A DNA stretch of 64,000 bases from Candidatus Omnitrophota bacterium (GCA_020341815.1 CP070837.1:1108575-1172574); one strand, 5' to 3'. Numbered from the stretch's first letter, positions 25,557 through 46,600 are shown. Translations and numbers: made by a program. Notes: generated from the sequence alone by a model not told the origin.

Positions 25557-25577
25557 TTTTTATCACCTGCCTAATGT

Positions 25578-28221: not shown

Positions 28222-29786
28222 AACTTAAAACTTTAATTCTGACAATTTGTCTTGCCCTGTTGACCCAGAGATTAGCTTTCACCTGGACAGAAGAGGTGCA
28301 GCTTGTTACCAACGAATTAAAGATAATTCCGGTTCAGGAGCTAAAGAGGGTAGCCATAGGAGACCCTGCCGTAGCCGATATGACCATATTGAGCGCTCGG
28401 GAAGTAATGCTGATGGCCAAGAGTTCAGGTACCACCAGTCTGATTATCTGGGATGCATCAGGCCAGCGTTCCTTTAACATTACTGTCCTGGGTAAGGATC
28501 TGGAAAAAATTGCCCAGAAAATCAGGGAATTACTTGTTTCCTCGGATATTCAGGGGGTGACGGTTAAGGCGCAAGAGGACGGCGTTTATGTGACGGGAGA
28601 GGTGTTAACCCAGTACGAACTGGATAAAGTTAAGAGCGTTTTAGCTCCTTTTGCTACTAATACGACAAATTTAGTCAGACTCAAAGAGCGCCAGCCTCTG
28701 GTGGAAATAGATGTAAATGTCTTAGAGGTTGCCTGCGATGACGTAAAGAGGCTGGGTTTTGACTGGTCAAATCTTTTACCAATCACATACACCGAGCCCT
28801 CAGGGACGCGCACTGCCGGCAGCTCTTATGACCCCAAAAGCCATATTACCGGCAAGGCTCCCAAGCTCTGGAGGACATTCAAGTGGGACCGCAGCACCAT
28901 TGACGCCAGACTGAATTTTTTAATAGAGGAGGGCAAGGCGCGCACTTTGTCTAATCCCAAATTAGTAACCTTAAGCGGTAAGGAGGCATCCTTTTTGGTG
29001 GGCGGAGAAACGCCTTATGTTACGGTGGAGACCGAAGGCAGGACAAAAGTGGAATGGAAAGAGTACGGGATAAATTTAAAGATACTTCCGGAAGTCAATA
29101 CTAAAAATGAGATAAGAATCGTGATGAATGCCGAAGTTTCTGACTTGGGCTCAAGTGTTTTAGAACAGGGATATTCTATCCCTTCCGTCACGACGAGAAA
29201 AGCCCAGACCGAGCTTTTTCTCAACGAAGAAGATACGATTTTTCTCGCCGGCCTGATTAGGAATAGAGATAGCGAAAATATAGATAGGCTTCCCTGGCTA
29301 AGCAAGGTTCCTATTTTAGGCGAGATGTTCAAATATAATAACCTTACTGATACGCGCACAGAGCTGGTAATCTCTTTGACACCGAGAATTATCGGCGAGA
29401 AAGCCGATTTCGAATACATCGCCAGCGAGATGCTCAAGCAGGAAGCAATTTTGGCGGCGCGCTCAGCCTATACCGAGGAAGTTTCTCCGCTCGATTCTTA
29501 CAATCAAATGATAGAGGATATTATTACCAATGCGGTTGTTTATCCCGAGGCGGCTCGCGAGGTGGGGCTTGAAGGTATGGTCAAGATTGAATTGCGCCTT
29601 TTGTCCGACGGCCGGCTGAAAGAGGCTAAAATCAGGGAATCCTCCGGATTCAGCACCTTAGACAGGGCTGCGCTTGCCGCAGTGCAGGCTGTTGATGCCT
29701 ATCCTTCATTTCCATCGCAGATTGCAGAAGAGGAGCTTCTGCTTTCCGTGCCGGTAGTATTCGAAAGTTATACGAAAGGTGAATAA
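28218..29786 (+). CDS. cpaC: Flp pilus secretin CpaC/RcpA with C-terminal TonB_C-like domain
   Basis: Signal peptide, N-terminal BON-like domains and a secretin core (...LVGGETPYV...VPILGEMF...). The last ~90 aa, YPEAAREVGLEGMVKIELRLLSDGRLKEAKIRESSGFSTLDRAALAAVQ, match the TonB C-terminal domain pattern. Confidence 0.7.
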   Translation: MKLKTLILTICLALLTQRLAFTWTEEVQLVTNELKIIPVQELKRVAIGDPAVADMTILSAREVMLMAKSSGTTSLIIWDASGQRSFNITVLGKDLEKIAQKIRELLVSSDIQGVTVKAQEDGVYVTGEVLTQYELDKVKSVLAPFATNTTNLVRLKERQPLVEIDVNVLEVACDDVKRLGFDWSNLLPITYTEPSGTRTAGSSYDPKSHITGKAPKLWRTFKWDRSTIDARLNFLIEEGKARTLSNPKLVTLSGKEASFLVGGETPYVTVETEGRTKVEWKEYGINLKILPEVNTKNEIRIVMNAEVSDLGSSVLEQGYSIPSVTTRKAQTELFLNEEDTIFLAGLIRNRDSENIDRLPWLSKVPILGEMFKYNNLTDTRTELVISLTPRIIGEKADFEYIASEMLKQEAILAARSAYTEEVSPLDSYNQMIEDIITNAVVYPEAAREVGLEGMVKIELRLLSDGRLKEAKIRESSGFSTLDRAALAAVQAVDAYPSFPSQIAEEELLLSVPVVFESYTKGE

Positions 29787-31948: not shown

Positions 31949-31995
31949 CACTTACACCTACGAGGTGTAAGTGGGGATTAGGTTTGATCTTTTTG
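31949..31995 (+). terminator. Terminator-like hairpin (cacttacacct-acg-aggtgtaagtg) with downstream T-rich stretch
   Basis: Perfect 11-bp inverted repeat. The T-tract is not immediately adjacent. Confidence 0.45.
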
Positions 31996-32018
31996 TATTG
32001 ACAAAGGGCAAGGGGATA

Positions 32019-32387
32019 ATGTATATTAGGGCTATTATGGAAACGGTAGAAGTCCTTAATGCTACCAAAAGTATAGTCGTAGCCACGCAGGCTGAACTTG
32101 CTGTTTCGTTAGGACAAAGGATGAAGGGCCTGATTGGACGCAGCAGCCTCCCCTTTAACGAAGCCCTTATCCTTAAGCCTTGCTCTTCCATCCATACCTT
32201 CTTTATGCGCTTTGCCATAGATGTGCTGTTCCTGAATAAAGAGATGCGGATAATCAGGATGCTCCAGAATATGCCACCCAACCGTCTTGGCCCCATAGTC
32301 TGGACAAGTATAATGGCAATAGAGCTGTCTGCCGGAAAGATAGGCCAGACCAATACCCAGCCAGGTGATTTAATTGAGCTTAGATAA
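32019..32387 (+). CDS. DUF192 (COG1430) domain protein
   Basis: ...MKGLIGRSSLPFNEALILKPCSSIHTFFMRFAIDVLFLNKEMRII matches the DUF192 pattern. The start is chosen at ATG 32019, which has a GGGGA RBS. Confidence 0.55.
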   Translation: MYIRAIMETVEVLNATKSIVVATQAELAVSLGQRMKGLIGRSSLPFNEALILKPCSSIHTFFMRFAIDVLFLNKEMRIIRMLQNMPPNRLGPIVWTSIMAIELSAGKIGQTNTQPGDLIELR

Positions 32388-32657: not shown

Positions 32658-34244
32658 ATGAAACTAAGCCCGGAAATAAAGGCTTTTATTGATGATCAAA
32701 TCAGAACTAAGAAACCATCCCTTACTTACAACAAATTAAGGCAAAAGGTGGCCCAGAGATACAATGTGCGTATCTCCAAGGCAACAATCAGTAAAAGGGC
32801 CAGTGCCTTAAATGTCCGGTTTCGGCCGGGTCGCAGGCGTGCAGGTACCGTTGAGAAGCGGCCGGCGCACAGCACGGCCTTAGACTGCGCCGGGGGCTTT
32901 TTCCTGAAGGGCGCAGAGCTGGAAATAGGCCTATTATCCGCCCTAAATAACTCACTTAAGGTGCGCAGCGATTCCGGGCAGGCTCGACGGGTACTGATGC
33001 TTGCCCGGCAGCTTAACGCCATATTGCTATATGCGCCTGTATTTGGCCTTAAAACCGTGGGTGAAATTGCCTCTTATCAAGGGCAGGGCCTGCTTTACCT
33101 TGCCGAGCAAAAGGATATCCCCGCTGAGAAGGAAATCGAGCAATATCTGCAATTCCTGATTAAACAAAAGTTGTTACTGCCTGCCATTAAGGAAGTTACA
33201 AGGATTTCTCAGGAGGCCCTGTTTGTGTATGCAGAGCTTGCCGGCCGAAAGTTCTATCTGGATGCCCAGTTGCGCTCAGTCTGGCCAAAGCCGAAAATCC
33301 CCCAATATTTTACTGCAACTCTAAATAAGACAAGTAGTTACGTCAAAGATATCTTCCAAAACCCTTCCCCGCAGCAACCGCTGATCTTACAGGCTTGTCC
33401 GGGTTATGCCTTTTTGCCCGGAGAGATGTTCGACCTAATCCAGTGCTTTGAAGAGGCCGGCGAGAAGCCCATTTTACGCCTTGTTATTGGGGGTAAGGCC
33501 GGAGAAGTCCTCAACTGTTGGGAGAGCCTTAAGCCAGGGCAAAAATGCTACTTTTTGGCTCCGTTAAGCCCCTGGCAGTATGCAAAGCTCCAGGGCAGCA
33601 AAATCATCAAAGATTTTAAGCCGTATCTCATTGGGCCGCAGAAAGAGCCGATGTCTGTGGCAGAGGCAGAAGTAAACCTCTTTAATCCACAACTCAATGA
33701 AAACGTTAGAGTTAGGGCAGCAATGGTAAGGAGGCAGGGGGAGCGCCTGGTGTTGGTTACCAATATTTCTCGCCGCGAAGAGCGCTATATCCGCAGGATA
33801 GTTGAAGCCTATTTCTGCCGCTGGCCAAACAGGAAAATGCCCAGCTATTACGACCTGTTAGAGCAGGGGCATGAAGAAGTGCTGGCCCGTTCAGACAAAC
33901 TCTATCGCACAACTCCTTTATTGACAATTGGTTACGACAAAGATGTCCTGAACGGATTTAGGTATCTCCTTGCGCAGCTTAATCGTTATGCCCAGGAACA
34001 CTTTTTCCCGTCGGAGTACAGGAAAGAGGACTTAGACTCTATGTGCAAGAAGTTTTACCGCCAGGATGGATACCTGAAAATGAAACAAGATTGCTGCGAG
34101 GTAACCCTGCGCTCTTTCGCGCAAGATGTCCTTCAGGAGGCCGTTCAGATTGCCCGCCAAAAAATCAATCAAAACGGCATAAAATTCCCTGCCTCGCGGC
34201 AAGGCGGGCCTACCCAGACCCAACCCCAGCTACGTATAAAATAA
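32658..34244 (+). CDS. Hypothetical 528-aa protein with N-terminal HTH; possible regulator or degenerate transposase-like protein
   Basis: N-terminal ...LTYNKLRQKVAQRYNVRISKATISKRA is HTH-like. The C-terminal Y..RW fragment is reminiscent of DDE transposases, but it is incomplete. Confidence 0.3.
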   Translation: MKLSPEIKAFIDDQIRTKKPSLTYNKLRQKVAQRYNVRISKATISKRASALNVRFRPGRRRAGTVEKRPAHSTALDCAGGFFLKGAELEIGLLSALNNSLKVRSDSGQARRVLMLARQLNAILLYAPVFGLKTVGEIASYQGQGLLYLAEQKDIPAEKEIEQYLQFLIKQKLLLPAIKEVTRISQEALFVYAELAGRKFYLDAQLRSVWPKPKIPQYFTATLNKTSSYVKDIFQNPSPQQPLILQACPGYAFLPGEMFDLIQCFEEAGEKPILRLVIGGKAGEVLNCWESLKPGQKCYFLAPLSPWQYAKLQGSKIIKDFKPYLIGPQKEPMSVAEAEVNLFNPQLNENVRVRAAMVRRQGERLVLVTNISRREERYIRRIVEAYFCRWPNRKMPSYYDLLEQGHEEVLARSDKLYRTTPLLTIGYDKDVLNGFRYLLAQLNRYAQEHFFPSEYRKEDLDSMCKKFYRQDGYLKMKQDCCEVTLRSFAQDVLQEAVQIARQKINQNGIKFPASRQGGPTQTQPQLRIK

Positions 34245-34360: not shown

Positions 34361-34500
34361 GCAGGTAAACAAGGTTACTCGAAAACGCAACCTCGCACTA
34401 ATTTTTCAAAAAATTAGTGCTGGGGCGCAAAGCCACGGGCCCCGAGATTTTGGGGCAGCCGGGCTGCCGAAAGTAACGGCGGTCCGGCTTTTTATTTGAG
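34361..34500 (+). ncRNA. Candidate structured leader / riboswitch-like element (multiple hairpins, GGGGCGCAAAGCC motif, ends in T-tract)
   Basis: Hairpins gcactaattttt/aaaattagtgc (34395-34420), gccccgagattttggggc and ggcagccgggctgcc, then ccggcTTTTTATTT (34485-34497). The GGGGCGCAAAGCCaCGGGcC stretch resembles the c-di-GMP-I (GEMM) GGGACGCAAAGCC core. Confidence 0.3.
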
Positions 34501-34601
34501 GAATTATTAAGACTTTTAAAAAGTAATTATAAAGAGGCGGCAAAATGACAACAAATGGTGCAACAAAAAACCTGCATAGCAAAAAATTGAGGGTAAGATC
34601 A

Positions 34602-34637
34602 GCAGACCTTTCTAATAAGGGGTCTGCTTTTTTATTT
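34602..34637 (+). terminator. Terminator/attenuator hairpin (gcagacc...ggtctgc + TTTTTTATTTT) immediately upstream of flp1
   Basis: 7-bp stem at 34602-34608 pairs with 34621-34627, followed by a T-run at 34628-34637. Confidence 0.55.
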
Positions 34638-34667
34638 TCGTTTTCCATAAATCAGGGAGGCGGTAAA

Positions 34668-34847
34668 ATGAGGCGGCTACTTAAGAGAGGTCAGAGTGTA
34701 TTGGAATACGTTCTGGTCTTGAGCGCGATTGTCGCGGCTATCCTGGCAGTAGCATCTACAATAAAAGGTAATGTAAAAAGTTCTGTAGAGCATGCAGCCG
34801 GGGAAATGTACGATGTTATAGACACAAGATTTCTACCGCAAAAATAA
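34668..34847 (+). CDS. flp: Flp-family type IVb pilin 1
   Basis: MRRLLKRGQSVLEYVLVLSAIVAAILAV is a class III signal peptide with the G/xxxxEY motif and a hydrophobic helix. RBS GGGAGG. Confidence 0.75.
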   Translation: MRRLLKRGQSVLEYVLVLSAIVAAILAVASTIKGNVKSSVEHAAGEMYDVIDTRFLPQK

Positions 34848-34881
34848 TTGCAATAAAGGGAAAGGATGCAGGAGGAATAAA

Positions 34882-35055
34882 ATGAGGCGGCTAAATAAAA
34901 GAGGACAGAGCATATTGGAATACGTGATAATTTTGACTGCGATTATTGCAGGCATTATTTTGGCAACGCCGGAAGTGAAAACTAAGGTTACAGATCTTCT
35001 GACAAGAGCAGGCAACAGAATGCAAACTGAAGTAACAACAAAATTGAATTTTTAA
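34882..35055 (+). CDS. flp: Flp-family pilin 2 (57 aa; below ORF-track cutoff)
   Basis: MRRLNKRGQSILEYVIILTAIIAGIILA... found by manual translation. RBS AGGAGG. Confidence 0.7.
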   Translation: MRRLNKRGQSILEYVIILTAIIAGIILATPEVKTKVTDLLTRAGNRMQTEVTTKLNF

Positions 35056-35074
35056 TGATTGCAGGAGGAATAAA

Positions 35075-35422
35075 ATGAGGCGGCTAAATAAAAGAGGACA
35101 GAGTACCGGAGAATATGCAATAGTTATCGGCTTGATTGTTGCCGCAGCAATTGCCATGCAGACCTATGTAAAAAGAGGAATGCAGGGAAAGATAAGGAAA
35201 GCCGTAGATAATATCAGTGAAGCCACCCGAGGCACAACCTTGCAATATGAGCCTTACTATTCCCACTCGGACTTTGAAACCAACACTCAGGAATATACAA
35301 TGACAGAAGCAACCACAGAGGGTGGAGGCTATGAGAAGCACATGGGTGAGGCGGGAGGATCAACAAAAACATCTCATCGAACCGGAACTCGAGGCATCCG
35401 GGCTGCGTCTGAAGCAGATTAA
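35075..35422 (+). CDS. flp: Flp-family pilin 3 with extended C-terminal tail
   Basis: MRRLNKRGQSTGEYAIVIGLIVAAAIAMQTYVKRG... followed by a T/G/E-rich tail. Confidence 0.7.
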   Translation: MRRLNKRGQSTGEYAIVIGLIVAAAIAMQTYVKRGMQGKIRKAVDNISEATRGTTLQYEPYYSHSDFETNTQEYTMTEATTEGGGYEKHMGEAGGSTKTSHRTGTRGIRAASEAD

Positions 35423-35454
35423 TTGAAACACACAAAGACATAACGAGGTGAAAA

Positions 35455-35805
35455 ATGAGGCGGCTAAATAAAAGAGGACAAAATACTATAGAATATGCAG
35501 TGCTTGTCGCTGTGGTGGTATCGGCTTTATTGGCAATCCAGACCTATTTAAACAGAGGGGTCAAGGGCAGGCTGAGAAGCTCCGTTGATAGCATAGGGCA
35601 GCAGTATTCTGCCGGGAATATGACCAGCTCCTCTACAACTACCGTTGCACCGCAAAAAAATGAGGAGGAATTTGGTACTGATACTTTAGGAAGAGGCTAT
35701 ACTAAGTCAAAAAGTACAGGCGGCACGACTACTGTACAGACTACAGGTGAGGGTGAGAAGACTACTTTGGGCTTGAGCGAAGAGACGTTATGGGAGGGAC
35801 AATAA
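35455..35805 (+). CDS. flp: Flp-family pilin 4 with extended Thr/Gly-rich tail
   Basis: MRRLNKRGQNTIEYAVLVAVVVSALLAIQTYLNRG... Confidence 0.7.
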   Translation: MRRLNKRGQNTIEYAVLVAVVVSALLAIQTYLNRGVKGRLRSSVDSIGQQYSAGNMTSSSTTTVAPQKNEEEFGTDTLGRGYTKSKSTGGTTTVQTTGEGEKTTLGLSEETLWEGQ

Positions 35806-36284
35806 TGAGGCGGCTAAATAAAAAAGGACAGAGCACGGCGGAATATGCGATAGTTATCGGTCTGATTATCGGCGCAGTAATTGGTATGCAGACCTATGTA
35901 AAAAGAGGGGTGCAGGCCAGAGTCAAAGACGCTGTTGATGGTTTTGCTACTCGCGCAGACCATAAGGCTAATTTCGGCGCCGGGGATATTAGTTATAACT
36001 TTACTGACTATAAAAATGCCCAGATTGGAGAAACTGCGCAGGGAGACGTAAAATACTTAAAATCAAGAGACACCACCAGCACCATTGGAACCGGCACTAC
36101 TGCAACCGAGCAGATGGAAAAAGGCGGAAAGGTAACAAGGACATCAACGACAATCCAGACTCGGGAAGTGGATGAAACCTATGATTACCAGAAAGTCCTA
36201 AGAGGACAAGCAGCAGGAGGAGGACAAGCAGGAGCAGGAGCAGGACAAACAGGAGAGCAAACAGGAGGAGGAGGAGGAGGATAA
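35805..36284 (+). CDS. flp: Flp-family pilin 5 with long tail ending in Gly/Gln/Ala low-complexity
   Basis: MRRLNKKGQSTAEYAIVIGLIIGAVIGMQTYVKRG... and a C-terminal GGGQAGAGAGQTGEQTGGGGGG. The ATG overlaps the flp4 stop (taATG). Confidence 0.7.
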   Translation: MRRLNKKGQSTAEYAIVIGLIIGAVIGMQTYVKRGVQARVKDAVDGFATRADHKANFGAGDISYNFTDYKNAQIGETAQGDVKYLKSRDTTSTIGTGTTATEQMEKGGKVTRTSTTIQTREVDETYDYQKVLRGQAAGGGQAGAGAGQTGEQTGGGGGG

Positions 36285-36289
36285 TAAAG

Positions 36290-36652
36290 ATGCGCTGGTT
36301 ATCTAGTAAAAAAGGACAAAATACGTTGGAATACGCTCTTCTTATAGCTACGGTCGTTGGTGCCGTTGTGGGTATGCAGATTTATGCTAAAAGAGGGGTT
36401 GAGGGAAAGCTGAAAAGCGCCACGGATGATATCGGCGCGCAGTTTGACCCCTTGAATACAGCGTACAGCTGGACCAATACACAAGAAAGCACAACGAAAA
36501 CGGTAACCAATGCCAGTGGCGTTAGCAATACCTATATGGGCGTTCCGGGTGGTGGCGTGCAAGAAACAACTACAAGAAGCGGCTATGAGAGCGTTAGCCC
36601 GTGGCGAGTACAGCCAGAGCCACAGACAGAGACAAAGCCACCGCAGAAATAA
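36290..36652 (+). CDS. flp: Flp-family pilin 6
   Basis: MRWLSSKKGQNTLEYALLIATVVGAVVGMQIYAKRG... Confidence 0.65.
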   Translation: MRWLSSKKGQNTLEYALLIATVVGAVVGMQIYAKRGVEGKLKSATDDIGAQFDPLNTAYSWTNTQESTTKTVTNASGVSNTYMGVPGGGVQETTTRSGYESVSPWRVQPEPQTETKPPQK

Positions 36653-36692
36653 ACTATCTATATTGTTTTGAATAGATGAGGTATTTATTAAA

Positions 36693-36848
36693 ATGTTTAC
36701 CGACGGACAGAGCGTAGTAGAATATATGGTTTTATTTGCGATAGTTGCTGCCTTTACTTTGCTGAGCGTATGCAGTTTATTTCCTCCCCTGAGGCAAAGT
36801 TGCCAGATCGCTTTTCAAGGCGCAATGGAGGAGATCTTAGAATGCGAA
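36693..36848 (+). CDS. Small Flp-like protein 7 (51 aa, divergent N-terminus MFTDGQSVVEY...)
   Basis: Found by manual translation. It has the GQSVVEY motif and a hydrophobic helix, and is Cys-rich. Confidence 0.4.
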
Positions 36849-36997
36849 TAAATCACCGCGCGCAAACCACATTGGAATATGCGATTTTAATTGCCGTTGT
36901 CGCAGCCGCATGTGCGGCAATGACTACTTATGTGCAGCGGGCGGTGCGGGCCAATCTGAAAGTGATTGAGGAGCAGATAAATGCAGAACCCGATTAA
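36842..36997 (+). CDS. flp: Flp-family pilin 8 (51 aa)
   Basis: MRINHRAQTTLEYAILIAVVAAACAAMTTYVQRAV... The ORF track's longer 36770 start is probably a spurious extension. Confidence 0.6.
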   Translation: MRINHRAQTTLEYAILIAVVAAACAAMTTYVQRAVRANLKVIEEQINAEPD

Positions 36998-37046
36998 TTA
37001 TTATAATATATTATTAAGGCTCTATATAGTCAGGATAATAGGCAGG

Positions 37047-37496
37047 ATGAATATAAGAAATAAGGGACAGGTTCTTCTAAGAACCGGCGGGCAGGTATTG
37101 CTGGAATACGGCCTTATTTTAGTTTTAATAGCAACTACTATAATTGGCATACAATTATATGTTAGAAGAGGCTTGCAGGCCAGGCTCAAAGACGCAGTTG
37201 ATGGGACAATCGAAAGGATTTATATAACCGCCAAATCCAAGCCTAAGGTAGAATTGCCTACCGGTGAGATACCCCCTATTGTTATTTATTCCCCAGCAGA
37301 TCTTCAATACGAACCTTATTATGAGCAGTCAGATATTACCACCACAAGCAACTCCAACATTACCAATTCTTATTCGCCCGGTGGAGCAAGCAGTAAAGCG
37401 ATAGAGAGTGAGAAAACTATGCGCACAGGCAGCCGTCTTGAGTTGCCTTATTCAGATAAGGCAGGCCCGCCTACCAGCGGCGAGGCAGGAGAATAA
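37047..37496 (+). CDS. flp: Flp-family pilin 9 with extended tail (start uncertain, 36981 possible)
   Basis: MNIRNKGQVLLRTGGQVLLEYGLILVLIATTIIGIQLYVRRGLQARLKDAVDG... Confidence 0.55.
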   Translation: MNIRNKGQVLLRTGGQVLLEYGLILVLIATTIIGIQLYVRRGLQARLKDAVDGTIERIYITAKSKPKVELPTGEIPPIVIYSPADLQYEPYYEQSDITTTSNSNITNSYSPGGASSKAIESEKTMRTGSRLELPYSDKAGPPTSGEAGE

Positions 37497-37497
37497 A

Positions 37498-38013
37498 ATG
37501 GGTAAATTAATTTCATCCAAGAGAGCTCAGGCTGTTTTAGAATATGCAGTTGTTTTGGGTATTGTTGCCCTGGCCCTGGGGATGATGCAGGTATATCTGA
37601 TGCGGGGCATTCAGGCCGGGGTTAAGATTGCCGCGGACGAAATAGGCCTGCAGGAGGATTCGGTAGAGTTGTCTGTGGAATTGAACTCGGCAAAGGAATT
37701 GGATTCGGCAAAGGAATTCGATGTCGCTGAAGTCAACAAGCAGAGATCCGTAGTGCGCAGCGAAAGTGCCAGCACGCACACTATTACGCATGGCGCCGGT
37801 GGCGGCCAGACAGCAGCAGAAACTTATAGTAATGAAATTATCAAAGTGGATGAAACTAATCCCAGTTGCAGCAAATCCTGGTATGGTTGGAGGAAGAAGC
37901 ACGAAAAGCCGGATGAGGCCGAAACTTCTTTGACGGTATTGGGTCCGGGAGGATCCCCGGATACGCCGTTTTCCGGAGAGGCCTACTCTCCCGATAAAGA
38001 ATACGGGGAATAA
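37498..38013 (+). CDS. flp: Flp-family pilin 10 with extended tail and internal short repeat
   Basis: MGKLISSKRAQAVLEYAVVLGIVALALGMMQVYLMRG... with an ELNSAKELDSAKEFD repeat at 37679-37722. Confidence 0.6.
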   Translation: MGKLISSKRAQAVLEYAVVLGIVALALGMMQVYLMRGIQAGVKIAADEIGLQEDSVELSVELNSAKELDSAKEFDVAEVNKQRSVVRSESASTHTITHGAGGGQTAAETYSNEIIKVDETNPSCSKSWYGWRKKHEKPDEAETSLTVLGPGGSPDTPFSGEAYSPDKEYGE

Positions 38014-38014
38014 A

Positions 38015-38371
38015 ATGTTAACAGGACTGATGAAGAAAAAAGCTCAAACCTTACTTGAATATGCGCTGGTAATAGCCTGCGTTGCGGCAGCTTTAATGGC
38101 AATGCAGTTTTATGTCAAGCGCGCTGTGCAGGGAAGGCTGCGCACTGCCGCCGACCAGATTGGCGAGCAATATGAGCCGGGTGACGTAACAGGCGGCTTT
38201 ACCGTAACAGTAGACAGGGATATTACTACAAATGTAGAGCCGGAGCAGGAATTAATCATAGAAGGTGAAGATGGATATGCGACGCTTAGGACGGATACAT
38301 TTACCAAAGATGAGTTTGAGCGCACAGGCACAGAAACCCTGGGCGCATTCGGCTCATCGCTTTGGGAATAA
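38015..38371 (+). CDS. flp: Flp-family pilin 11
   Basis: MLTGLMKKKAQTLLEYALVIACVAAALMAMQFYVKRAVQG... Confidence 0.65.
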   Translation: MLTGLMKKKAQTLLEYALVIACVAAALMAMQFYVKRAVQGRLRTAADQIGEQYEPGDVTGGFTVTVDRDITTNVEPEQELIIEGEDGYATLRTDTFTKDEFERTGTETLGAFGSSLWE

Positions 38372-39719
38372 GAAAGCACAGTCATTGGTAGAATTGGCTA
38401 CTTTTGGCACGGTGCTGCTTTTTGCCCTGACCCTGCTTTTGCGCTACGGGATGAGTGCCAATCAGCAGCAGAATATGAGAATGCAGACTTTCCGCAAGGC
38501 CTTTGTCCGCGCGCGTTCTTATGATTATAAAGCTCGTTATTCGCGCTATTCCGAGGGAGATAAAAATGATCCGCTTTTTCAATTTCATCAGAGTGATATC
38601 TGGTGGCAGCAGGCAATAGCAGCGCAAAACCCCATGAATTTCGTTTCTTCGGATGAATGTTTAGACCCGGGCTGGGAATACGAAAATAAGATTTTAACCG
38701 ACAGCGGCGAATTGGTCAATCCGCCCCTGCCCAGCAATCACTGGCGCACCGTAAATTACGCAGTAGTTGAAGACAAGCCTGTTTTTTCCGCTTCGGGGAT
38801 TTTGCCCATTGCCGAGCGTGCTCCGGCGATGGCGATTACGGAGGCCACCTGCAGCATCGATCTGTTTATGAATCCAGGCTATGGCGACAAAAGGGCCCTG
38901 TCGCGCGCAGAATATGAAATTAACGGCAAGAGATATTCTTTTACCGCAGCCGGGTACAAGGAAGTTACGCTGACTAACGGCAAACTTGAAAACGGAAGCC
39001 CTATTATCATAAAAGAGGACATTGAGGATTGGAACGGACAAGGCAAATGCTGGAGACCGAAAGAGGTAAAAGTCCTTAAGGCAGGAGACATCGCAAATGT
39101 GGATGACGACCCTTATGAGGAAACCGTCATGGAAGCCAAGACAAGTGTTCTTGAAGTAATTGACGATGAGGGTAATCAGGTAAAAGTAGTAAATTCTGAA
39201 AAAAATATTATTGAACTCTACTTCAGCATTGACTATGTGGATGAGAACGGGTCTTACGCCGGGACTGGACACCGTAAAGGCAGATATACGCTTAGTGAGG
39301 AAGAGATAGGTGCAGCTGCGAAAGACTTTATAGAAATTAATGTATGCCTTGGCAGCGTTTATGATGGCGCCGATGCCGATGAGAAGTATATGTATAGAAA
39401 AGAAAAAATAAAGGTTATTGGATGGAAAAATGAATTAAAGGTGCTGGACCAGCAAGAGGGTGAGGTTTTCGCAGAAAGAATTAACCCTATAACAGGCGAA
39501 GAGGAAAAAGGCGGGCTCTTGGGCAGTTACAATAAAAAAACAGAAGTGAACGCATCTACTTTGGAGCGCAAAGAGAACGCTTTGGGCATCGAGACCATCG
39601 AAGATATCAATGCCCGGGAAATATTCAACCGCACAATTAAAACCCGAGATGGAGATCACAATGTACAGAGCAGCTTCTCCACACAAAAAACAACGACCTG
39701 GGATACGCCCCATAAATAA
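38265..39719 (+). CDS. TadE-like pseudopilin with large C-terminal domain (start uncertain; overlaps flp11 3' end)
   Basis: ...GNKKAQSLVELATFGTVLLFALTLLLRYG is a TadE-like N-terminal domain. No in-frame ATG lies downstream of 38310, so the gene must overlap the flp11 3' end. Confidence 0.5.
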   Translation: MKMDMRRLGRIHLPKMSLSAQAQKPWAHSAHRFGNKKAQSLVELATFGTVLLFALTLLLRYGMSANQQQNMRMQTFRKAFVRARSYDYKARYSRYSEGDKNDPLFQFHQSDIWWQQAIAAQNPMNFVSSDECLDPGWEYENKILTDSGELVNPPLPSNHWRTVNYAVVEDKPVFSASGILPIAERAPAMAITEATCSIDLFMNPGYGDKRALSRAEYEINGKRYSFTAAGYKEVTLTNGKLENGSPIIIKEDIEDWNGQGKCWRPKEVKVLKAGDIANVDDDPYEETVMEAKTSVLEVIDDEGNQVKVVNSEKNIIELYFSIDYVDENGSYAGTGHRKGRYTLSEEEIGAAAKDFIEINVCLGSVYDGADADEKYMYRKEKIKVIGWKNELKVLDQQEGEVFAERINPITGEEEKGGLLGSYNKKTEVNASTLERKENALGIETIEDINAREIFNRTIKTRDGDHNVQSSFSTQKTTTWDTPHK

Positions 39720-39963
39720 GTCGAGGGCTCAGGCGACAATAGAGGCAACAATATCCATCATTGCCGTGTTTATCTTTCTTCTGGGGGCAATGCAGATCTT
39801 TCTCTGGATGAACCGCAATATTATTGACCGGCAGAAGGCCTATCAGGAAAGCAGGCTGTCATTGGGCGATTTCACAAGGAAGCCGGGAAAAAATGACGAA
39901 ATAAAGTCAATAGATTTTTACCAGCCTACAGAGTTCTCTGTTTTTTCGCAAGAGGGTGAATAA
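39661..39963 (+). CDS. TadE-like protein (start uncertain; overlaps upstream gene)
   Basis: ...SRAQATIEATISIIAVFIFLLGAMQIFLWMN is a TadE-family N-terminal motif. Confidence 0.5.
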   Translation: MYRAASPHKKQRPGIRPINKSRAQATIEATISIIAVFIFLLGAMQIFLWMNRNIIDRQKAYQESRLSLGDFTRKPGKNDEIKSIDFYQPTEFSVFSQEGE

Positions 39964-41590
39964 GACTATGTATCAGGGAAATGTGTTTATAAACTGGCAG
40001 TATTTTCGCAAGGATAAAAAGAGCGGCCAGGTAGCCACCTTGATTACCCTGGCTATTGCCATAATCTTTTTATTCGTGGCGGTTACCCTGAATATCAGCC
40101 GCGTTGCCGAGAAAAAGACCGCTACCGCCAATGCCGCTGATGCAGCCGCAATGAAGCTGGCCTCTTATCTGGGCAGTTACGCCAATACATTGAGCTGGCA
40201 TGCTGTTGACGGCAAGACATTCAACGAAACAAGGCACTATACGCCGGCATGGAAAATAGTGACTGTGGTAACATTAACAATAGTTGCCGTTATTGCTTCA
40301 GGAGGAACGGCATTAGCAGCGGCATTAGGAGGAACGAGCACAGCATTAGCTGCCGGCATCGGCGCAGGCATCACCGGTCTTGGTTATGCATATGATCAGT
40401 TTATCGGGCTTCCGGAATTTGAAGAAGAACTGCAGAAGGAGCTGAAGAAGTTAGAATTGGAAGACAATCTCAGCGAGCAGGCAATAAAATATGCCCTGGA
40501 AAATTGCGTAGATGACCCGGTAATGGTAATCGATGTTCATGACTACAATAAAGACGATGATGTGACCGATGAGATTCCCCGTTTTTATAAATGGTATATG
40601 GAAAGAGTTAAGATGTTAAGCAAGGCGGCCGCAGGCAAAAGAGCACAGATAGATAGCTTTGTTGGCCGGATAGAAACCTTTGCCAGAGATGATGATAGTT
40701 TCAGCCGGAGAATCAGCGGAGAGTTTATTCCCTTGTTCGAGGAATTAGAGGCAATAGAGCTTGACCTTTCTTTCTGGGAGGCAGGGCCTACGGATCCGGA
40801 AGAATCGCTTTGCGGCTGGGATGAGGTGGATGACCTAAAATTACATCTGGATAACTTTTATCAGTGGGCCCTGGGCGAAGATGGGCTTTGTGTGCAGGAT
40901 TTTGATAGCATAGTAATGTTGTATAATAGCTGGATGCTCGACTTGCTCAGGGATGAAGAGGAGCCCTGGTATGATGTATGGGAAGAGGATATTGTAAAAA
41001 TAGAAAACTGGTGCCGGGAGTTATACGATGTATATGCCCAGCTTGAAGGAATGATTGCCAAGGAGACCGATGCTGAGCAAAAGGCCAGTCTTCTGGAGTT
41101 GCAAGAGCGCCTTGCCCCAACGATTGGCGCTTTTGTTAAGATGAGGGATAAATTGAGAGGATTTAATAACGAAGTTTTGGTATTCGATCTTCAGAGCAAA
41201 GACGAAAACTTTGCTTCCGAGAATGAGGCTACCTATTCCTGGTATGATTCTTTGGGCTGGCACCATGTGCGCGTAGAGGTTTCTGCTTTTACTATGCCCT
41301 GGGTTAAACCGGACACAGACAGACATGTCCACAGGACCGATTTTGAAGTTTGGCTGAAGAATTACAGGGGGACGGTAACTGTGACGGTAACCCGCTATGA
41401 TGAGTCAAACAGCGCTTCTTTTGCCCGGGAAGGCACTCCCTTATGGAAGTTTCGTTATGTAAAGGATGCCCAGGCCGAGCAGAAAATTAAACCCGAAGAT
41501 CCCGAATCAGCCTTGCCTTACGGGATTAAAAGTGAAGCTACGGCCTCCTACACTTTCAACGAATTACCTAAATTGGTGGATGTGAAATAA
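39956..41590 (+). CDS. TadG-like pilus assembly protein
   Basis: ...KKSGQVATLITLAIAIIFLFVAVTLNISRVAEKKTATANAADAAAMKLASYL matches the Tad/TadG-like N-terminal domain pattern (PF13400). Large C-terminal domain. Confidence 0.6.
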   Translation: MNKTMYQGNVFINWQYFRKDKKSGQVATLITLAIAIIFLFVAVTLNISRVAEKKTATANAADAAAMKLASYLGSYANTLSWHAVDGKTFNETRHYTPAWKIVTVVTLTIVAVIASGGTALAAALGGTSTALAAGIGAGITGLGYAYDQFIGLPEFEEELQKELKKLELEDNLSEQAIKYALENCVDDPVMVIDVHDYNKDDDVTDEIPRFYKWYMERVKMLSKAAAGKRAQIDSFVGRIETFARDDDSFSRRISGEFIPLFEELEAIELDLSFWEAGPTDPEESLCGWDEVDDLKLHLDNFYQWALGEDGLCVQDFDSIVMLYNSWMLDLLRDEEEPWYDVWEEDIVKIENWCRELYDVYAQLEGMIAKETDAEQKASLLELQERLAPTIGAFVKMRDKLRGFNNEVLVFDLQSKDENFASENEATYSWYDSLGWHHVRVEVSAFTMPWVKPDTDRHVHRTDFEVWLKNYRGTVTVTVTRYDESNSASFAREGTPLWKFRYVKDAQAEQKIKPEDPESALPYGIKSEATASYTFNELPKLVDVK

Positions 41591-41591
41591 A

Positions 41592-41846
41592 ATGAAAAAC
41601 AGAGGCAGTTTAATTTTGGAATACAGTCTTTTGATTGCGGTGGCAGTGGCGGCCTTGCTCTGCATGCAGTTTTATGTGAAACGGGCTGTCTGCGGGCGCT
41701 TTCGTCAGGCCGCAGATGCCTTTGGTTACGGCCGGCAGTTTGAACCTGGTGTAACGAAGGTAACAAAAAAAGAACCGGTTGGACCATTGACAGTATCGGC
41801 TCCGGTGAAATCACCGGTAACGCCGGTTGACGTAATTGCATATTAA
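41592..41846 (+). CDS. flp: Flp-family pilin 12
   Basis: MKNRGSLILEYSLLIAVAVAALLCMQFYVKRAVCGRFRQAADAFG... Confidence 0.65.
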   Translation: MKNRGSLILEYSLLIAVAVAALLCMQFYVKRAVCGRFRQAADAFGYGRQFEPGVTKVTKKEPVGPLTVSAPVKSPVTPVDVIAY

Positions 41847-41856: not shown

Positions 41857-42705
41857 ATGTTATTAGTGTTAATCTTTACATTGGCATTTGCTTCGATAGC
41901 GCTTCTTGCCTGGCAGCTTTATCCTGCCGGGGCGCGCATAATCGGGGCGTATCACGCCAAGAGGGTTAAGCGCGACAGCAAAAGATTGGAGAGGATGTTT
42001 CTGGAAGTGCCTCATAAGAAACTGATTTTAGTTTACGGGCTTTCTCCGGTGATTACAGGTATCGGCGGCTTTATTCTTACCCAGACTTTAGCAGGCGGAT
42101 TAATCGCCGCGGCCTTCGGCATAATTTTACCTAATACAGCGCTCAAGATAATGGAGAAAAACCGCATCAGAAAATTCCGTCAGCAATTAATTGACGGCCT
42201 GATGATTATTTCCAGCTCCTTAAAAGGGGGCTTGAGTCTTTTGCAGTCTATAGAAGTATTGGTTGAGGAGATGCCTGCGCCTATCAAACAGGAGTTTGCC
42301 CTTATCCTGCGCGAAAATAAGATGGGCGCCTCATTAAGTGAATCCTTGGCCAGACTAAACAAGCGCATCAAGAGCGAGGAATTAAACTTAGTGGTTACGG
42401 CCATTGACATTGCCCGGGAGACAGGGGGAAATTTAACCGAACCCCTTAAGAAATTAATGCTTACCATCAGGGAAAGAGACAAGCTCCTGGGCAAACTGAA
42501 GACCCTGACCATGCAGGCAAAGCTGCAGGGACTAATTATGAGTTTTATGCCGATTATTTTTGGAATTGTAGTTTATTATTTGAATCCGGGATTCTTTAAG
42601 ATTATGCTGGTTGTCCCTACCGGCCGCATGCTTTTAGTGATAGCAGGCGTTTTGCAAATGGTAGGCGCATTCTTACTCTGGAAGCTCAGCCAGGTGGAGG
42701 TGTAA
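41857..42705 (+). CDS. tadB: Flp pilus assembly protein TadB (T2SS-F family)
   Basis: Multi-TM protein with a GspF-like domain, following the pilin array. Confidence 0.75.
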   Translation: MLLVLIFTLAFASIALLAWQLYPAGARIIGAYHAKRVKRDSKRLERMFLEVPHKKLILVYGLSPVITGIGGFILTQTLAGGLIAAAFGIILPNTALKIMEKNRIRKFRQQLIDGLMIISSSLKGGLSLLQSIEVLVEEMPAPIKQEFALILRENKMGASLSESLARLNKRIKSEELNLVVTAIDIARETGGNLTEPLKKLMLTIRERDKLLGKLKTLTMQAKLQGLIMSFMPIIFGIVVYYLNPGFFKIMLVVPTGRMLLVIAGVLQMVGAFLLWKLSQVEV

Positions 42706-42709
42706 CAGG

Positions 42710-43606
42710 ATGATAAACTTTTTACCCTATATAATTCTTCTGCTTGCCTTCAGCTCCATATTCATTTTGGTGAGCCAGTATTTCTCCCATAGAGAAAGAC
42801 AAAAGCTTATCAAAGAACGTTTTGCTTCTGCGCAGAAAAAGGAATTAGAGAAGCCTTTCTGGATGGAGCCCTTGCTTAAACCTTTGGCCCCTATTAATGA
42901 ACATATAGGCAATAAAAGATTTCGTGAGCATATCAGGCAACGCCTCTTGGGAGCCGGCTCTCCTTTGAGCGTGAATGAATATTTTGTATTTAAAGAAGTT
43001 ATGGTTTTGTTTATGCCGCTCATTTTAGCTATTGTAATCGGCTGGGATAATCTGCTTAGCATTCCGATACTTGTAGTGGCTGCCTGCGGATTTGGTTTTA
43101 TTTACCCCGATTTTTGGTTAAAGGTCAGAACCCAGAAGCGCCGAAAGGATGTCTTGCGCGCCCTGCCGAGCATCATCGATTTATTGACCCTGGCTGTAGA
43201 TGCCGGGCTTGACTTTATGATTGCCGTGCGCCGTGTGGTGGAGCATTCGCGTCCCGGGCCGATGGTGGATGAGCTTTCCTTTCTCTGGCAGGAGGTGCAG
43301 ATGGGGCGCGTGCGGCGCGATGCCTTAAGGAGTATGGCGAAAAGATTAGACCTTGCCGAGGTGCACTCCTTTACCCGTACGCTTATTCAGGCAGAGAGAA
43401 TGGGTACGCCTATGGGTGAGGCCCTGCGGACTTTAAGCGATGAGATTCGTATGCGTCAGTTTCAAAGGGGAGAGCAGCAGGCTCTCAAGGCTCCGATTAA
43501 GATGCTATTTCCTCTTCTGTTTTGCATTCTGCCGGTAGTATTGATTTTGGTCGGAGGCCCGGTAATTTTACAGTTTTTCCAGACCAGTTTTCAATTTTTT
43601 AAATAA
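42710..43606 (+). CDS. tadC: Flp pilus assembly protein TadC (T2SS-F family)
   Basis: Second GspF-like membrane protein. Confidence 0.75.
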   Translation: MINFLPYIILLLAFSSIFILVSQYFSHRERQKLIKERFASAQKKELEKPFWMEPLLKPLAPINEHIGNKRFREHIRQRLLGAGSPLSVNEYFVFKEVMVLFMPLILAIVIGWDNLLSIPILVVAACGFGFIYPDFWLKVRTQKRRKDVLRALPSIIDLLTLAVDAGLDFMIAVRRVVEHSRPGPMVDELSFLWQEVQMGRVRRDALRSMAKRLDLAEVHSFTRTLIQAERMGTPMGEALRTLSDEIRMRQFQRGEQQALKAPIKMLFPLLFCILPVVLILVGGPVILQFFQTSFQFFK

Positions 43607-43615: not shown

Positions 43616-46600
43616 ATGAAAGCGTCTTGCGCTAAGACAATCTGGTTTAAGCTTGCAAGCATCCTGACGATAGGACTTTTTCTATTGCAGGGCAGCGCTT
43701 TCGGCGAATTCGACCCTATCGAAAAAAATAGGTATAATAAGCAGAGCGTCGCGCCGGAGTATGACTGGCGGCAGGATGCTATCGGATTTGCAACTACGGT
43801 TGCAATGCCTTTTGTGCCCTCGGCTGCCGGGGGAATCGGAGGCGCCTTTGGCCTGGGCACAGGATGGACAACTGCTATTGGCGTGGGATTGGGCGCAGGT
43901 GTAGGCGCAACCCCGGGTTTGGTTGCCAATAATGATACTGCTACAGGCATCGGTGCTGTATGTGGCGGCCTTACCGGGGGGCTTGGCACTTATAATCAGG
44001 TTTCTAATTTTAATACCGGAATAAATGAAGTTGGGCGAGTGAGCGATGAACTAAAGACCGTTAATGATATGGTGGAAAATGCTAAGCTGCTTAAAGCGGC
44101 AGGCTATCTTAACGAAGCCAACTTTAATATCTCGCAAGCTAGCAGCATAGTCTCCGGCGGCACAGAAACAGCGATGTCAATAGGAGAATTAACCAGGATA
44201 AGTGAAACAATGGGGACGATGATAAATAGCGCCGATAGCCTGGGCCAATTAGGTTATTATAATGAAGCGGCATTCAATCTTTCCCAGGCAGCTAAGATAG
44301 TTCCCGATGTATGTTCACTAACCACGGCGAGTAATTTAATTGCTATGAGCAATGCGATTAATCCCCTTCCTCAGGTTATTGAGAAAATGTCCATAAGCTT
44401 TGCCACCCAGGAGGCCAGCTCGATATTGGTAAAAGCAGCTGTGTCTAAATGGAATTGGAACCCCAGGAATGCCCAGGCATTGGGGATGATTGGCGGCTCT
44501 ATGACCGGCTGGACTATGGGTTCACTCACTACCGGCGGGCAGAATATGATGTATGGGATGTATAAAGACAGCTGGCCCGGCTTAGCTGACTGGGCTACCT
44601 CAGACTCTACCTGGAAAAATGTAGGCGCAGGAGCAGTTACCGGTTTAGGGTTGGGAGGCTTGCAGACCCTTGCTACTATGGAATTATACGATGCCCTGGA
44701 GTCTCATAACAATAAAATGCCCGATACAACTAAGATGCAGGTGGCTTCTCTTGGCGGCCAGGCTTTAGGAAGTCTTGGCTGGGGCGGCCTGGTAGGCGGA
44801 TTTGGCAGCTTAGGGAAAGACCATATGCCTACTTACGATGAATATATAGCCGGCGGCGGCAAAGTTAACAAGGGCTCTCTTAGCGGTCAAGGGGCCGGTC
44901 CGCTTTCAAAGAAAGGGTTTGAGAATTGGGTTGCAACTGCGCAGCCTGTAGCTGTAGCGGATAAAGGCAACTGGCTTACGGGCATAAAAGATGGAGCCGG
45001 CAATTTTGGCAGTGGTATGTGGCAGGGCATTAAAACAACCGCCAATGAGCCGTTCTGGAAGGGTATCGGACAGAGGACGCTTTCCATCGGTATCGAATGG
45101 GCAGCCTTACACAATGAAATGGATCCGGAGGATGCTTCCAATCTTGCCTCAAGCACTTCAATGCTTTTAGCTAACACAGTGCCTATGTATCCGCATCGGC
45201 CCGATCCCCAACAGGCAGAACGTCTTAAAGAAGGCGCCAGAGCCCTGGAGGCGCAAGCGGATAATTTAAGAAAAGGTCATAGTGAGGTTAAGGAACATTT
45301 TGGAGAGCTCCTGGTGGGCGATCCTCTTTTAGCTATGGAGATAGACAATACATTTGAAAATAAAATAAAGGCCTTTGAGAATCGGGCAGAAAAAACAAAG
45401 GCGCAGGCAGAGAGGGTAGAAGGCTGGCATGTGAGTACTTTACGCGAGCCCACACCTATTACTAAATATAGAATGTTAAATGCATTCCTGGAACCGGTTA
45501 CTTCCGGCCTGCTTACCTTAGCTGCGGATAACTTGCGTAAGGGCAAGGTAGAAGCGTTTTATGATGCCCCGGGCGCAAAAGAGAGAAATGACGCCCGGAT
45601 TGATTTGCTGGTGCACGATTTAACCGCAATGAATGTAGCCAGCCTCACTCATTCCGGAATAGTTGCCCTGTTTAATCAGAAAGGCTGGGGAGAAGGCTTT
45701 GATGAGTTTGGTCAAATCTATCTGGCCAAACAGTGCGATTTTTCCGGTGATATGCTTTCTTTTGGCAGTCAGGCCTTTGGGGCAAAGACTGGCGGAAGAA
45801 GGGATGAAACAGCAGGTGGTTATAGTATATATGGCGCTGCCCAGAGAAATAGCCAGATGTGGGATTTTGCCGGTTTGAATAATTTTGCTGCCCAGGCAGA
45901 AGAAGTTGCCGATGCCGGCGGCAGGTGGCAGCGGCAGATGACAGAAGGCTTGTTTGCCAGTCCTTTTCCCGCTGTTTCAAGGAGTCTTAGCAGTCCTTCA
46001 GGTGGGTTAGCTTATAGTCACACTATCAGAAATGCGGAAGGTTTGGTATATACAGGGATTAAGAATAGCAAACTTATAGCGCCTTATGAGCTTGAGCATA
46101 TTAGTCCTCAGTATGCTTTTAAGTTAGAGCACGGGAATCTTAAACAGCAAGCAATGCTTACTGAAATAAATCGTTGGATTAAGGAATCATCCTATCCTGT
46201 AGCTTTTGGCAAAGAAGGTGTTAATTTTCAATATTGGTCTATTGGGGAAATTGCTCCAAATAGTGAAAAGTTAATGCTAGAGAATGCATTTACAAAAGTT
46301 GAATACAAAGATGAAGACCAGATAATGCTTAAGGCATTAAAGAAGTTTGATGTCAATAAACCTTTTAAGCTTGCCTTTATCGGTCCTGATAGATATAAAC
46401 AGACACCGCTTATTGAAAAGGAAAAGATTGTGCCGCCACAACCTAAAAAGATTGTGCCGCCATCCCCGCCAGTTGAAGAAGTTAAACCATCTGCGAAGAA
46501 AGAAGAAGTGTTGCCGCCAAAACCTCCGGCTCCTGTTGTTGCGCCTTCTCGCGAGGGTTATCCTATAGAAGGAGGGTGGTTTCGTCCGAATGATCCTCCT

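Follow-up and report, generated by a model that had tools for sequence, protein, structure and literature searches.

Omnitrophota are widespread, uncultured and ultra-small bacteria that are thought to live as predators or parasites. A locus resembling a type II secretion system (T2SS), which includes a peptidyl-prolyl isomerase (PPIase) gene, is conserved upstream of their giant genes (West-Roberts 2023, 10.1101/2023.11.21.568195). In the same work, the giant genes were found to contain GGDEF domains and to be followed by PilZ genes. Tad complexes are encoded by most Velamenicoccia species, the Tad complex of the predator V. archaeovorus LiM is expressed in co-culture, giant open reading frames (ORFs) were noted, and the Omnitrophota TadB/TadC were placed near those of Bdellovibrionales (Seymour 2023, PMC10066038). 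In these two studies, the small genes of the locus were neither counted nor classified, and the number of pilins was not mentioned. A 2025 paper on limonene contains no statement on pili. In Bdellovibrio, four flp genes were described as the largest complement known; the predatory Bdellovibrio and like organisms possess four to six flp genes, at most three of them within the tad locus, and their Flp pilins are not interchangeable and are required for predation, not for adhesion (Avidan 2017, PMC5430801). Here we analyzed a stretch of 64,000 nucleotides (nt) from a Candidatus Omnitrophota metagenome-assembled genome (CP070837.1:1108575-1172574), hereafter called the window. An earlier reading of this stretch (the original prediction) had pointed to an expanded tandem array of twelve Flp-type pilin genes inside a tad locus. 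In public data, identical proteins bear NCBI names from a Candidatus Omnitrophota metagenome-assembled genome (locus tags JSV30_06150 to 06195).

We propose that the region is the pilin operon of a Tad-type (type IVc-like) machine, which stands in front of the Omnitrophota giant genes and would work as described below. We give this reading a probability of about 0.6. Judging from the sequences, the region would encode 15 prepilin-like proteins, namely 12 Flp-sized or Flp-plus-tail pilins of nine types and three TadE/TadF/TadG-like minor pilins. In this article, L with a number denotes a related locus used for comparison, P with a number denotes a homologous protein, and types A to I are clusters of pilins.

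Twelve pilin-like genes in the window and their counterparts in related loci

Eleven consecutive ORFs at 34668-38371 and a twelfth ORF at 41592-41846, all on the + strand, each encode a short basic leader. The leader ends in K/R-G/A and is followed by Q-x-x-x-E-Y and then by about 20 hydrophobic residues. In the alignment of the twelve N-termini, E at +5 and Y at +6 are invariant (12/12), and Q is present at +1 in 11/12. The residue at -1 of the predicted cleavage site is G in nine and A in three of the twelve. The shared prepilin domain spans about 48 residues and includes the YVKRGxQGRLK motif; the segment behind the helix reads MQxYVKRGVQxxLxxAxDxI in the alignment of the twelve. When a profile hidden Markov model (HMM) of the N-terminal 62 alignment columns was compared with all six-frame ORFs of the window, only these 12 ORFs were recovered (E 9e-18 to 4e-26). 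Because the common motif extends beyond the hydrophobic helix, the N-terminal similarity is not a low-complexity coincidence. The twelve pilin ORFs are real, and they are related to one another beyond chance.

A GGAGG/GAGG-type Shine-Dalgarno (SD) site, 5-12 nt 5' of the ATG, is clear in ten of the ORFs and weak at 36693 and 37047. AATAAA-ATG is a frequent start context, the stop codon is TAA in 12/12, and neighbouring ORFs are spaced by -10 to +49 nt. The leaders have 5-15 amino acids (aa), and the mature proteins have 44-161 aa. The twelve ORFs are as follows.

34668-34847, + strand: pilin 1, type C; 59 aa, mature about 51 aa
34882-35055, + strand: pilin 2, type C; 57 aa
35075-35422, + strand: pilin 3, type D; 115 aa, with a QYEPYY tail
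35455-35805, + strand: pilin 4, type E; 116 aa
35805-36284, + strand: pilin 5, type D; 159 aa, with a Gly/Gln-rich end
36290-36652, + strand: pilin 6, type E; 120 aa (P0089)
36693-36851, + strand: pilin 7, type A; 52 aa, with Cys; an identical protein is present in a Logan assembly (P0078)
36842-36997, + strand: pilin 8, type B; 51 aa; a candidate major subunit, of the type with the highest conservation
37047-37496, + strand: pilin 9, type F; 149 aa (171 aa from the NCBI start at 36981)
37498-38013, + strand: pilin 10, type G; 171 aa
38015-38371, + strand: pilin 11, type H; 118 aa (113 aa from 38030)
41592-41846, + strand: pilin 12, type I; 84 aa, with CGRFRxxADxFGxGRQ

Judging from the tag numbering, pilin 7 apparently has no NCBI locus tag. 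Pilin 8 is named "class III signal peptide-containing protein" by NCBI. The leader of pilin 9 (37047-37110) reads MNIRNKGQVLLRTGGQVLLEY. In this leader the cleavage-site segment G-Q-V-L-L is duplicated, which gives two possible processing sites; the duplication is not found in the orthologues P0015, P0070 and P0075.

The original prediction had listed twelve ORFs with a G-xxxxEY motif and a hydrophobic N-terminus. All twelve were found in place on the + strand and are homologous by both alignment and HMM, and since the motif continues past the helix, the worry that their N-termini are alike through low complexity falls away. However, it had counted two products of fewer than 60 aa, and there are four. 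It had also described Thr/Gly/Glu-rich tails of up to 171 aa. The richness was borne out, but 171 aa is the length of a whole protein, and the tails in fact measure 34-116 aa.

Related loci were gathered by way of the ATPase, by way of contigs with homologous pilins, and by TadB alignment in metagenomes. The comparison set comprised 33 related loci: nine genome or assembly loci (including the truncated L008) and 24 metagenome loci. Their conserved order is (PPIase, RcpC, secretin, TadZ-TadA), DUF192, a helix-turn-helix (HTH) protein, pilins, two TadE-like, TadG-like, pilin, TadB, TadC and the giant gene. Where it is annotated, the giant gene at this position in the relatives encodes 3874-12939 aa. 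Eight of the genome or assembly loci hold 8-10 pilin-domain ORFs, and the truncated L008 holds at least 6. The 24 metagenome loci, which have the same layout, hold 7-13, with a median of 10. Because the relatives carry 7-13 pilin genes, the expansion is a trait of the lineage and not peculiar to the genome of the window; twelve is high but within the range. Thus, the count is far above the one to three Flp genes of classical tad loci, as had been claimed, but the array is not expanded in comparison with its own kin. The idea that twelve is a record was rejected, given that L033 and L084 hold 13 (inspected by eye). The array is an ordinary instance of a locus type already described for Omnitrophota.

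In some relatives the same pilin N-terminus is followed by a C-terminal region of 380-430 aa (L022, 7124-8386; L084, 4538-5821; L099, a 383-aa match; L048, a 415-aa match). These variants would be a large pilin or a tip protein, and none is present in the window.

Pilin types, family membership and tails

Types were obtained by clustering the mature sequences of six loci, and type HMMs were then applied to 30 further loci. The clustering gave about nine groups with recognizable signatures.

Type A: short; FPP/Cys motif
Type B: short; QRAVRANLK...INAEP
Type C: short; IKPAVN
Type D: tailed; QYEPYY
Type E: tailed; QNT...IGxQFDP
Type F: GQVLLEY
Type G: RGIQAGVKIAAD
Type H: ADQIGEQYEPG...RxGTE...LWE
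Type I: CGRFRxxADxFGxGRQYEP; the last pilin before TadB in 29/33 related loci

By the type HMMs, the recurring order is A-B-C-D-E-(F)-G-H...I, and copy number varies mainly in types C, D and E. The order in the window is C C D E D E A B F G H ... I, with all nine types present (9/9) and C, D and E doubled. The identities between these duplicates are 36% (C-C), 52% (D-D) and 38% (E-E). Between the window and L006, the short type B is 82% identical, and it is more conserved than the motor ATPase: the TadZ-TadA fusion is 74% identical, TadB 63%, the secretin 55% and the other pilins 36-58%. The tails are the fastest-diverging parts of the pilins (22-48% identity between orthologues).

The 5' ends of pilins 1-5 (window 34653-35940), which comprise the SD site, the leader MRRLNKRGQ and the start of the helix, share 65-84% DNA identity, whereas the remainder is far more diverged. 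A stretch of 44 nt is identical in pilins 2 and 3. The homogenized 5' ends therefore suggest gene conversion that is limited to this part of the genes. Recent tandem amplification was rejected, since the duplicates are only 36-52% identical despite their homogenized 5' ends. In a search of the window, no relevant inverted repeats that bracket an invertible promoter were found. Because nine types occur in a conserved order, the duplicates are old and invertible-promoter repeats were not found, the sequences favour a fixed set of specialized major and minor pilins over a repertoire for antigenic variation. The original prediction had offered both of these. Of the two, the mixture of major and minor pilins agrees with the finding that about nine types recur, mostly in order, in more than 30 related loci.

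To which family these pilins belong was judged by several signatures. The G↓XXXXEY motif (the arrow marks the predicted cleavage site) with a hydrophobic helix, as in Flp/Fap pilins, is present in 12/12. The small size of the all-helical Flp/Fap pilins (mature, about 45-60 aa) is approached by 4/12 (mature 44-51 aa), and the other eight carry extensions of 34-116 aa. The class III signal peptide family is described in Pfam by a QxSxE motif (Q at +1, E at +5). Q at +1 is present in 11/12 and E at +5 in 12/12. The gathering score of Flp_Fap (PF04964; 32.2 bits) was reached by none of the twelve: the top score was 20.0 bits (pilin 4), and the other pilins scored 13.7-19.1 bits or had no match. 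Against the archaeal family Class_IIIsignal (PF04021; gathering score 23.7), pilin 8 scored 23.8 bits, at the cut-off, pilins 4 and 6 scored 16.7-16.9 bits, and the remaining pilins had no match. Among 83 homologues at E <= 0.01, 40 matched Class_IIIsignal, 17 Flp_Fap and 11 DUF4244. An NCBIfam scan of the 12 ORFs gave nothing useful (best TIGR04205, E 0.012). When the family profile was compared with PDB sequences, only Caulobacter Tad pilins were aligned, over nearly the whole 45 residues but without significance (E 0.38 and 1). An exhaustive HMMER search recovered 6701 cluster representatives at E <= 1e-3 and 2865 at E <= 1e-10; therefore, this is a large environmental family.

Because the Flp_Fap cut-off was missed and Class_IIIsignal was matched more often among the homologues, we call the 12 ORFs putative Flp-like pilins with a class III signal peptide, belonging to a Tad-type machine and lying outside Pfam Flp_Fap. 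By these matches, the family takes a position intermediate between Flp and the archaeal family of class III signal peptides. The Flp-type and TadE-like labels of the original prediction thus stand in part: by the refuting condition that it had itself set, the gathering scores of Flp_Fap and TadE were missed, but the sub-threshold matches were to the right families.

Beyond the helical core of about 45 aa, 8/12 pilins have a tail of 34-116 aa, and 4/12 have none. Seven long tails consist of 52-73% T/S/G/E/D/N/Q. Types E and H have conserved IGxQ(Y/F)xP, RxGxE and W-E motifs in common. An AlphaFold2 model of type H from a 22-sequence alignment was unusable in the tail (predicted local distance difference test score, pLDDT, of about 50). 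With a 48-sequence alignment, residues 2-46 were modelled as a helix and residues 53-77/80-104 as one long beta-hairpin, with a pLDDT of 76 on average and of about 80 in the hairpin. The Tad pilins of solved structure are without a beta domain (PMC11067988). Therefore, the tailed types would differ from canonical Flp in a defining respect.

The riboswitch and the genes around the array

A cyclic di-GMP (c-di-GMP) riboswitch precedes the array. This element and the giant gene behind the locus had both been missed in the original prediction. The features between the HTH protein gene and pilin 1 are as follows.

34376-34471, + strand: c-di-GMP-I riboswitch aptamer (RF01051, 47.8 bits against a gathering score of 35; model positions 1-87)
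34457-34489, + strand: intrinsic terminator with a 13-bp stem and a T-run, the expression platform; the 3' strand of the aptamer, AGCCGGGCUGCCG, doubles as its 5' arm
34601-34628, + strand: second hairpin and T-run, past the riboswitch and before pilin 1; kept in L006 and L020

The aptamer lies 197 nt upstream of pilin 1. In 8/8 instances checked, the 5' arm of the terminator is the 3' strand of the aptamer. The same overlap of aptamer and terminator is found 5' of the array in L006, L008, L014, L018, L020 and L021. Rfam matches upstream of the array were obtained in these six loci and in L029, L033 and L056. Compensatory changes are present in 8/18 consensus pairs of the aptamer. We then built our own covariance model from the riboswitch sequences of the arrays and searched 40 sources with it. 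This gave 43 matches, all on the + strand and at two syntenic places. The first place, occupied in the window and in 21 loci, is just 5' of the array. The other is directly past TadC, upstream of the giant gene, in 21 loci; the window is without this second copy. The post-TadC copies include those in L019, L021, L022, L026, L029, L031, L033, L034, L043 and L054, and further copies are in L056, L077, L082, L084, L086, L087, L090, L093, L094 and L099. For example, they lie at 12193-12276 in L056 and at 18218-18335 in L021. When a sample was compared with Rfam, the array copies were c-di-GMP-I and most of the giant-gene copies were c-di-GMP-I-GGC (RF03167, 61-67 bits against 59).

From pilin 1 to the giant ORF, the gaps between genes are 49 nt or less and no strong internal terminator was found. 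Therefore, one riboswitch may govern the whole string up to the giant ORF. An SD-ATG, GAGGCGGCAAAATGA, is located at 34533-34547, and the second T-run hairpin follows about 55 nt later; the short frame crosses the hairpin and is in frame with pilin 1. This layout of SD-ATG and second hairpin is kept in L006 and L020, and in L008 the same SD-ATG directly starts the first pilin. It may be what is left of a first gene that was lost, or it may act as a second attenuator.

Riboswitches of the c-di-GMP-I (GEMM-I) class are known to control pilus and adhesion genes. In our literature search, no paper was found that joins a c-di-GMP riboswitch with Tad/Flp operons or with Omnitrophota. The riboswitch is not mentioned in West-Roberts 2023, Seymour 2023 or a 2026 complete-genome preprint.

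The other genes of the conserved locus and those behind it are as follows.

26355-27380, + strand: SurA-like PPIase (Rotamase_2, Pfam); opens the conserved locus; equally placed in L016 and L021
27382-28221, + strand: RcpC/CpaB (PF16976, 89.9 bits)
28218-29786, + strand: secretin (RcpA/CpaC-like) with a C-terminal TonB_C domain (PF00263 145 bits, PF13629, PF03544)
29790-31928, + strand: fusion of a TadZ-like (ParA/CbiA) domain and a TadA/CpaF-type ATPase, 712 aa (PF01656 and PF00437, the latter 210 bits)
31971-32387, + strand: DUF192 protein (PF02643), at the same position in all related loci
32658-34244, + strand: 528-aa protein with a weak N-terminal HTH (HTH_32 20.9 bits, sub-threshold), between DUF192 and the riboswitch
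38265-39719, + strand: large TadE-like putative minor pilin (A↓QSLVEL), 484 aa; no Pfam match; start uncertain, best ATG 38310
39610-39963, + strand: small TadE/TadF-like putative minor pilin (A↓QATIEA); TadE (PF07811) 16.1 against 22.9 bits; start uncertain; conserved
39956-41590, + strand: TadG-like protein (G↓QVATLI), 544 aa; PF13400 21.5 against 22.3 bits; conserved
41857-42705, + strand: TadB (T2SSF; PF00482, 60 bits)
42710-43606, + strand: TadC (T2SSF; PF00482, 61 bits)
43616-48058, + strand: 1480-aa ORF, no family match; starts 9 nt past TadC
48060-63998, + strand: giant ORF of more than 5300 aa, which leaves the window; starts 1 nt past the preceding stop codon

That the array lies inside a tad locus is confirmed by the Pfam matches to RcpC, a secretin, a T2SSE ATPase with a ParA/TadZ-like domain, and two T2SSF proteins. 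Two fusions, secretin-TonB_C and TadZ-TadA, are conserved across the lineage. The former is also present in L001, L016, L019, L021 and L022. The latter is 72-80% identical in the closest relatives and 54-55% identical in L007 and L009. The two TadE-like genes and one TadG-like gene of the original prediction have prepilin-like N-termini and conserved positions, but their Pfam matches are sub-threshold or lacking: none of these three larger prepilin-like ORFs reached the TadE or TadG gathering score. The ORF at 38265-39719 is conserved in L006, L008, L014, L016 and L018. In the giant ORF, a domain search of the first 4900 aa for GGDEF or others gave TPR matches only.

The 528-aa protein is identical over its full length by 54% in L008 and by 46% in L006, with weaker matches in L014, L018 and L016. 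HTH proteins of the related loci have about 290-580 aa. Judging from its position and its weak HTH match, it could be a regulator of the pilin operon. A transposase that interrupts the locus was considered for this ORF and rejected, because the gene is kept at the same position in relatives.

Upstream, the Tad locus is adjoined by a tRNA cluster, DUF4416 and an F-type ATP synthase operon (18185-24397). The cluster consists of four tRNA genes at 25269-25649, and one further tRNA gene is at 13519-13591; tRNA genes also flank the Tad locus in L004, L006 and L008. A PyrR binding site (RF00515, 56.6 bits) at 8445-8546 lies 5' of a pyrimidine biosynthesis cluster (8558-17966). In a 1217-aa protein encoded at 4689-8342, a response-regulator receiver domain (residues 780-860) is the sole recognized domain.

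Proposed working, alternatives and comparison with known systems

We propose the following working for the pilin operon. Cleavage behind the G/A of K/R-G/A↓Q-x-x-x-E-Y would be the task of a prepilin peptidase encoded outside the window. One fibre would then be assembled from the subunits by the TadZ-TadA ATPase together with RcpC, the secretin and the TadB/TadC platform. Its shaft would consist of the short, helix-only types (B foremost, and also C and A). The tailed types, with a beta-hairpin extension behind the helix, and the TadE/F/G-like proteins would be low-abundance, specialized subunits for priming, for the tip or for surface decoration. The c-di-GMP-I riboswitch would gate transcription of the array, and TadB/TadC, the 1480-aa ORF and the giant gene may come under the same control, given the near-zero gaps between the genes. 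Because the aptamer and terminator pairings are mutually exclusive, bound ligand would hold the 3' strand of the aptamer and block the terminator. In other words, a high concentration of c-di-GMP would turn the operon ON.

Several points weigh against this proposal. All twelve pilins missed the Flp_Fap gathering score. A Peptidase_A24 prepilin peptidase was found neither among the window ORFs of at least 120 aa nor in the gene lists of the related loci. About 13 of 35 array-bearing loci have no upstream riboswitch at E <= 0.01, and the second hairpin before pilin 1 (34601-34628) is not accounted for in this working. When the type H model was compared with the PDB by Foldseek, there was no significant neighbour (best E 0.1). 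The top matches were long beta-hairpins of ring and pore proteins, and the hairpin of the model may be distorted by monomer modelling. Moreover, type B is a candidate for the major subunit on grounds of size and conservation, and processing, co-assembly, the ON logic and a role in attachment to prey or host are read from the genes.

The alternative that survives best is a secretion device, in which the many pilins would form a short periplasmic pseudopilus that pushes the giant protein or other cargo through the secretin. The T2SS has five pseudopilins, one major and several minor, and the many distinct pilin types of the array recall them. The giant ORF is in the same gene string as the pilins (gaps of 1-9 nt), relatives have riboswitches in front of the pilin array as well as the giant gene, and the locus upstream of giant genes has itself been called T2SS-like (West-Roberts 2023, 10.1101/2023.11.21.568195). 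However, the parts are of Tad type and not of Gsp type (split TadB/TadC, RcpC, TadZ domain, short E5-Y6 pilins), GspC/L/M-like genes were not seen, and four pilin types match the size of the shaft subunits of solved Tad pili. Furthermore, the giant proteins have many transmembrane regions according to the same report, and therefore export of a folded protein through the secretin would fit poorly. We consider a secretion device unlikely, although it deserves to be kept in mind.

Less probable still is the idea that only the short types are fibre subunits, and that the long-tailed proteins use the class III signal peptide as an anchor or export tag for surface proteins. Some archaeal substrate-binding proteins use this signal peptide. 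The more frequent matches to Class_IIIsignal than to Flp_Fap (40 and 17 of 83 homologues) and the regions of 380-430 aa on the same N-terminus in L022, L084 and L099 are consistent with such a use. In contrast, the post-helix segment YVKRGxQGRLKxAxDxIGxQYEP is common to the tailed pilins and the short type I pilins, and the tails are small and predicted to form a single beta-hairpin with no binding domain. Antigenic or phase variation, in which one pilin at a time is expressed or recombined so that the surface of the fibre changes, is very improbable: the fast evolution of the tails, the recombination or conversion visible at the 5' ends of pilins 1-5 and the differing copy numbers of C, D and E would suit it, but the array consists of twelve complete genes in one co-directional string, every one of them provided with a ribosome-binding site, a start codon and a leader of its own, the nine types recur in a conserved order in more than 30 loci, the duplicates are old (36-52% identical), and neither promoter-flanking inverted repeats nor truncated silent cassettes were found in the window.

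The giant genes and the pilus locus that precedes them are the main genomic clue to how Omnitrophota attack other cells. The many small genes of the locus would be a fixed kit of about nine pilin types and not random duplicates; for a Tad-type machine, no other known set of pilins would come near it in complexity. A c-di-GMP riboswitch lies ahead of this kit and, in relatives, ahead of the giant gene too. It is tempting to go further and suppose that a heteropolymeric fibre of about nine obligatory types, several with a beta-hairpin extension that is not known from Tad pilins, and the giant membrane protein form one c-di-GMP-triggered device for attack on, or attachment to, prey. We regard this extension as tentative and rather doubtful. 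To the published descriptions of the locus, the present analysis adds the range of 7-13 pilin genes, the order of the nine types, the conservation of type B, the predicted beta-hairpin extension, and the riboswitch before the array and, in relatives, before the giant gene.

Compared with the classical Flp/Tad systems (Aggregatibacter flp-tad, Caulobacter pilA-cpa), the locus has the same TadA/CpaF, TadZ/CpaE-like domain, TadB/TadC, RcpC/CpaB and secretin. Common to both are also short pilins in which E at +5 is followed by Y at +6, as well as TadE/F/G-like minor pilins. The locus differs in its 12 pilin genes instead of one to three, in the very short leader (5-15 aa), Q at +1 and the C-terminal extension in 8/12, in the TadZ-TadA and secretin-TonB_C fusions, and in having no TadV/CpaA peptidase in the locus. 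Bdellovibrio and like organisms are likewise predatory or parasitic bacteria with more Flp pilins than usual; however, in the window there are 12 in one putative operon.

The multi-pilin Epd pili of Methanococcus are an example of archaeal class III signal peptide pilins (PF04021). Such pilins share with the array a short basic leader, Q at +1, E at +5 and several different pilin genes per locus. In contrast to them, the host here is bacterial and has an F-type ATP synthase, RcpC and a secretin, and the machine is of Tad type; moreover, the archaeal pilins usually have a larger beta-sandwich domain, unlike those of Omnitrophota. The riboswitch agrees with the c-di-GMP-I class (RF01051) in its score above the cut-off, conserved core, covarying stems and terminator overlapping the aptamer, but relatives add a c-di-GMP-I-GGC copy before the giant gene. 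Finally, the window agrees with the Omnitrophota locus described in front of giant genes (West-Roberts 2023): gspD/E/F-like genes, rcpC, a Rotamase_2 PPIase, many small class III signal peptide genes and a giant gene are all present. Nothing essential differs, and in the window a 1480-aa ORF stands between TadC and the giant ORF.

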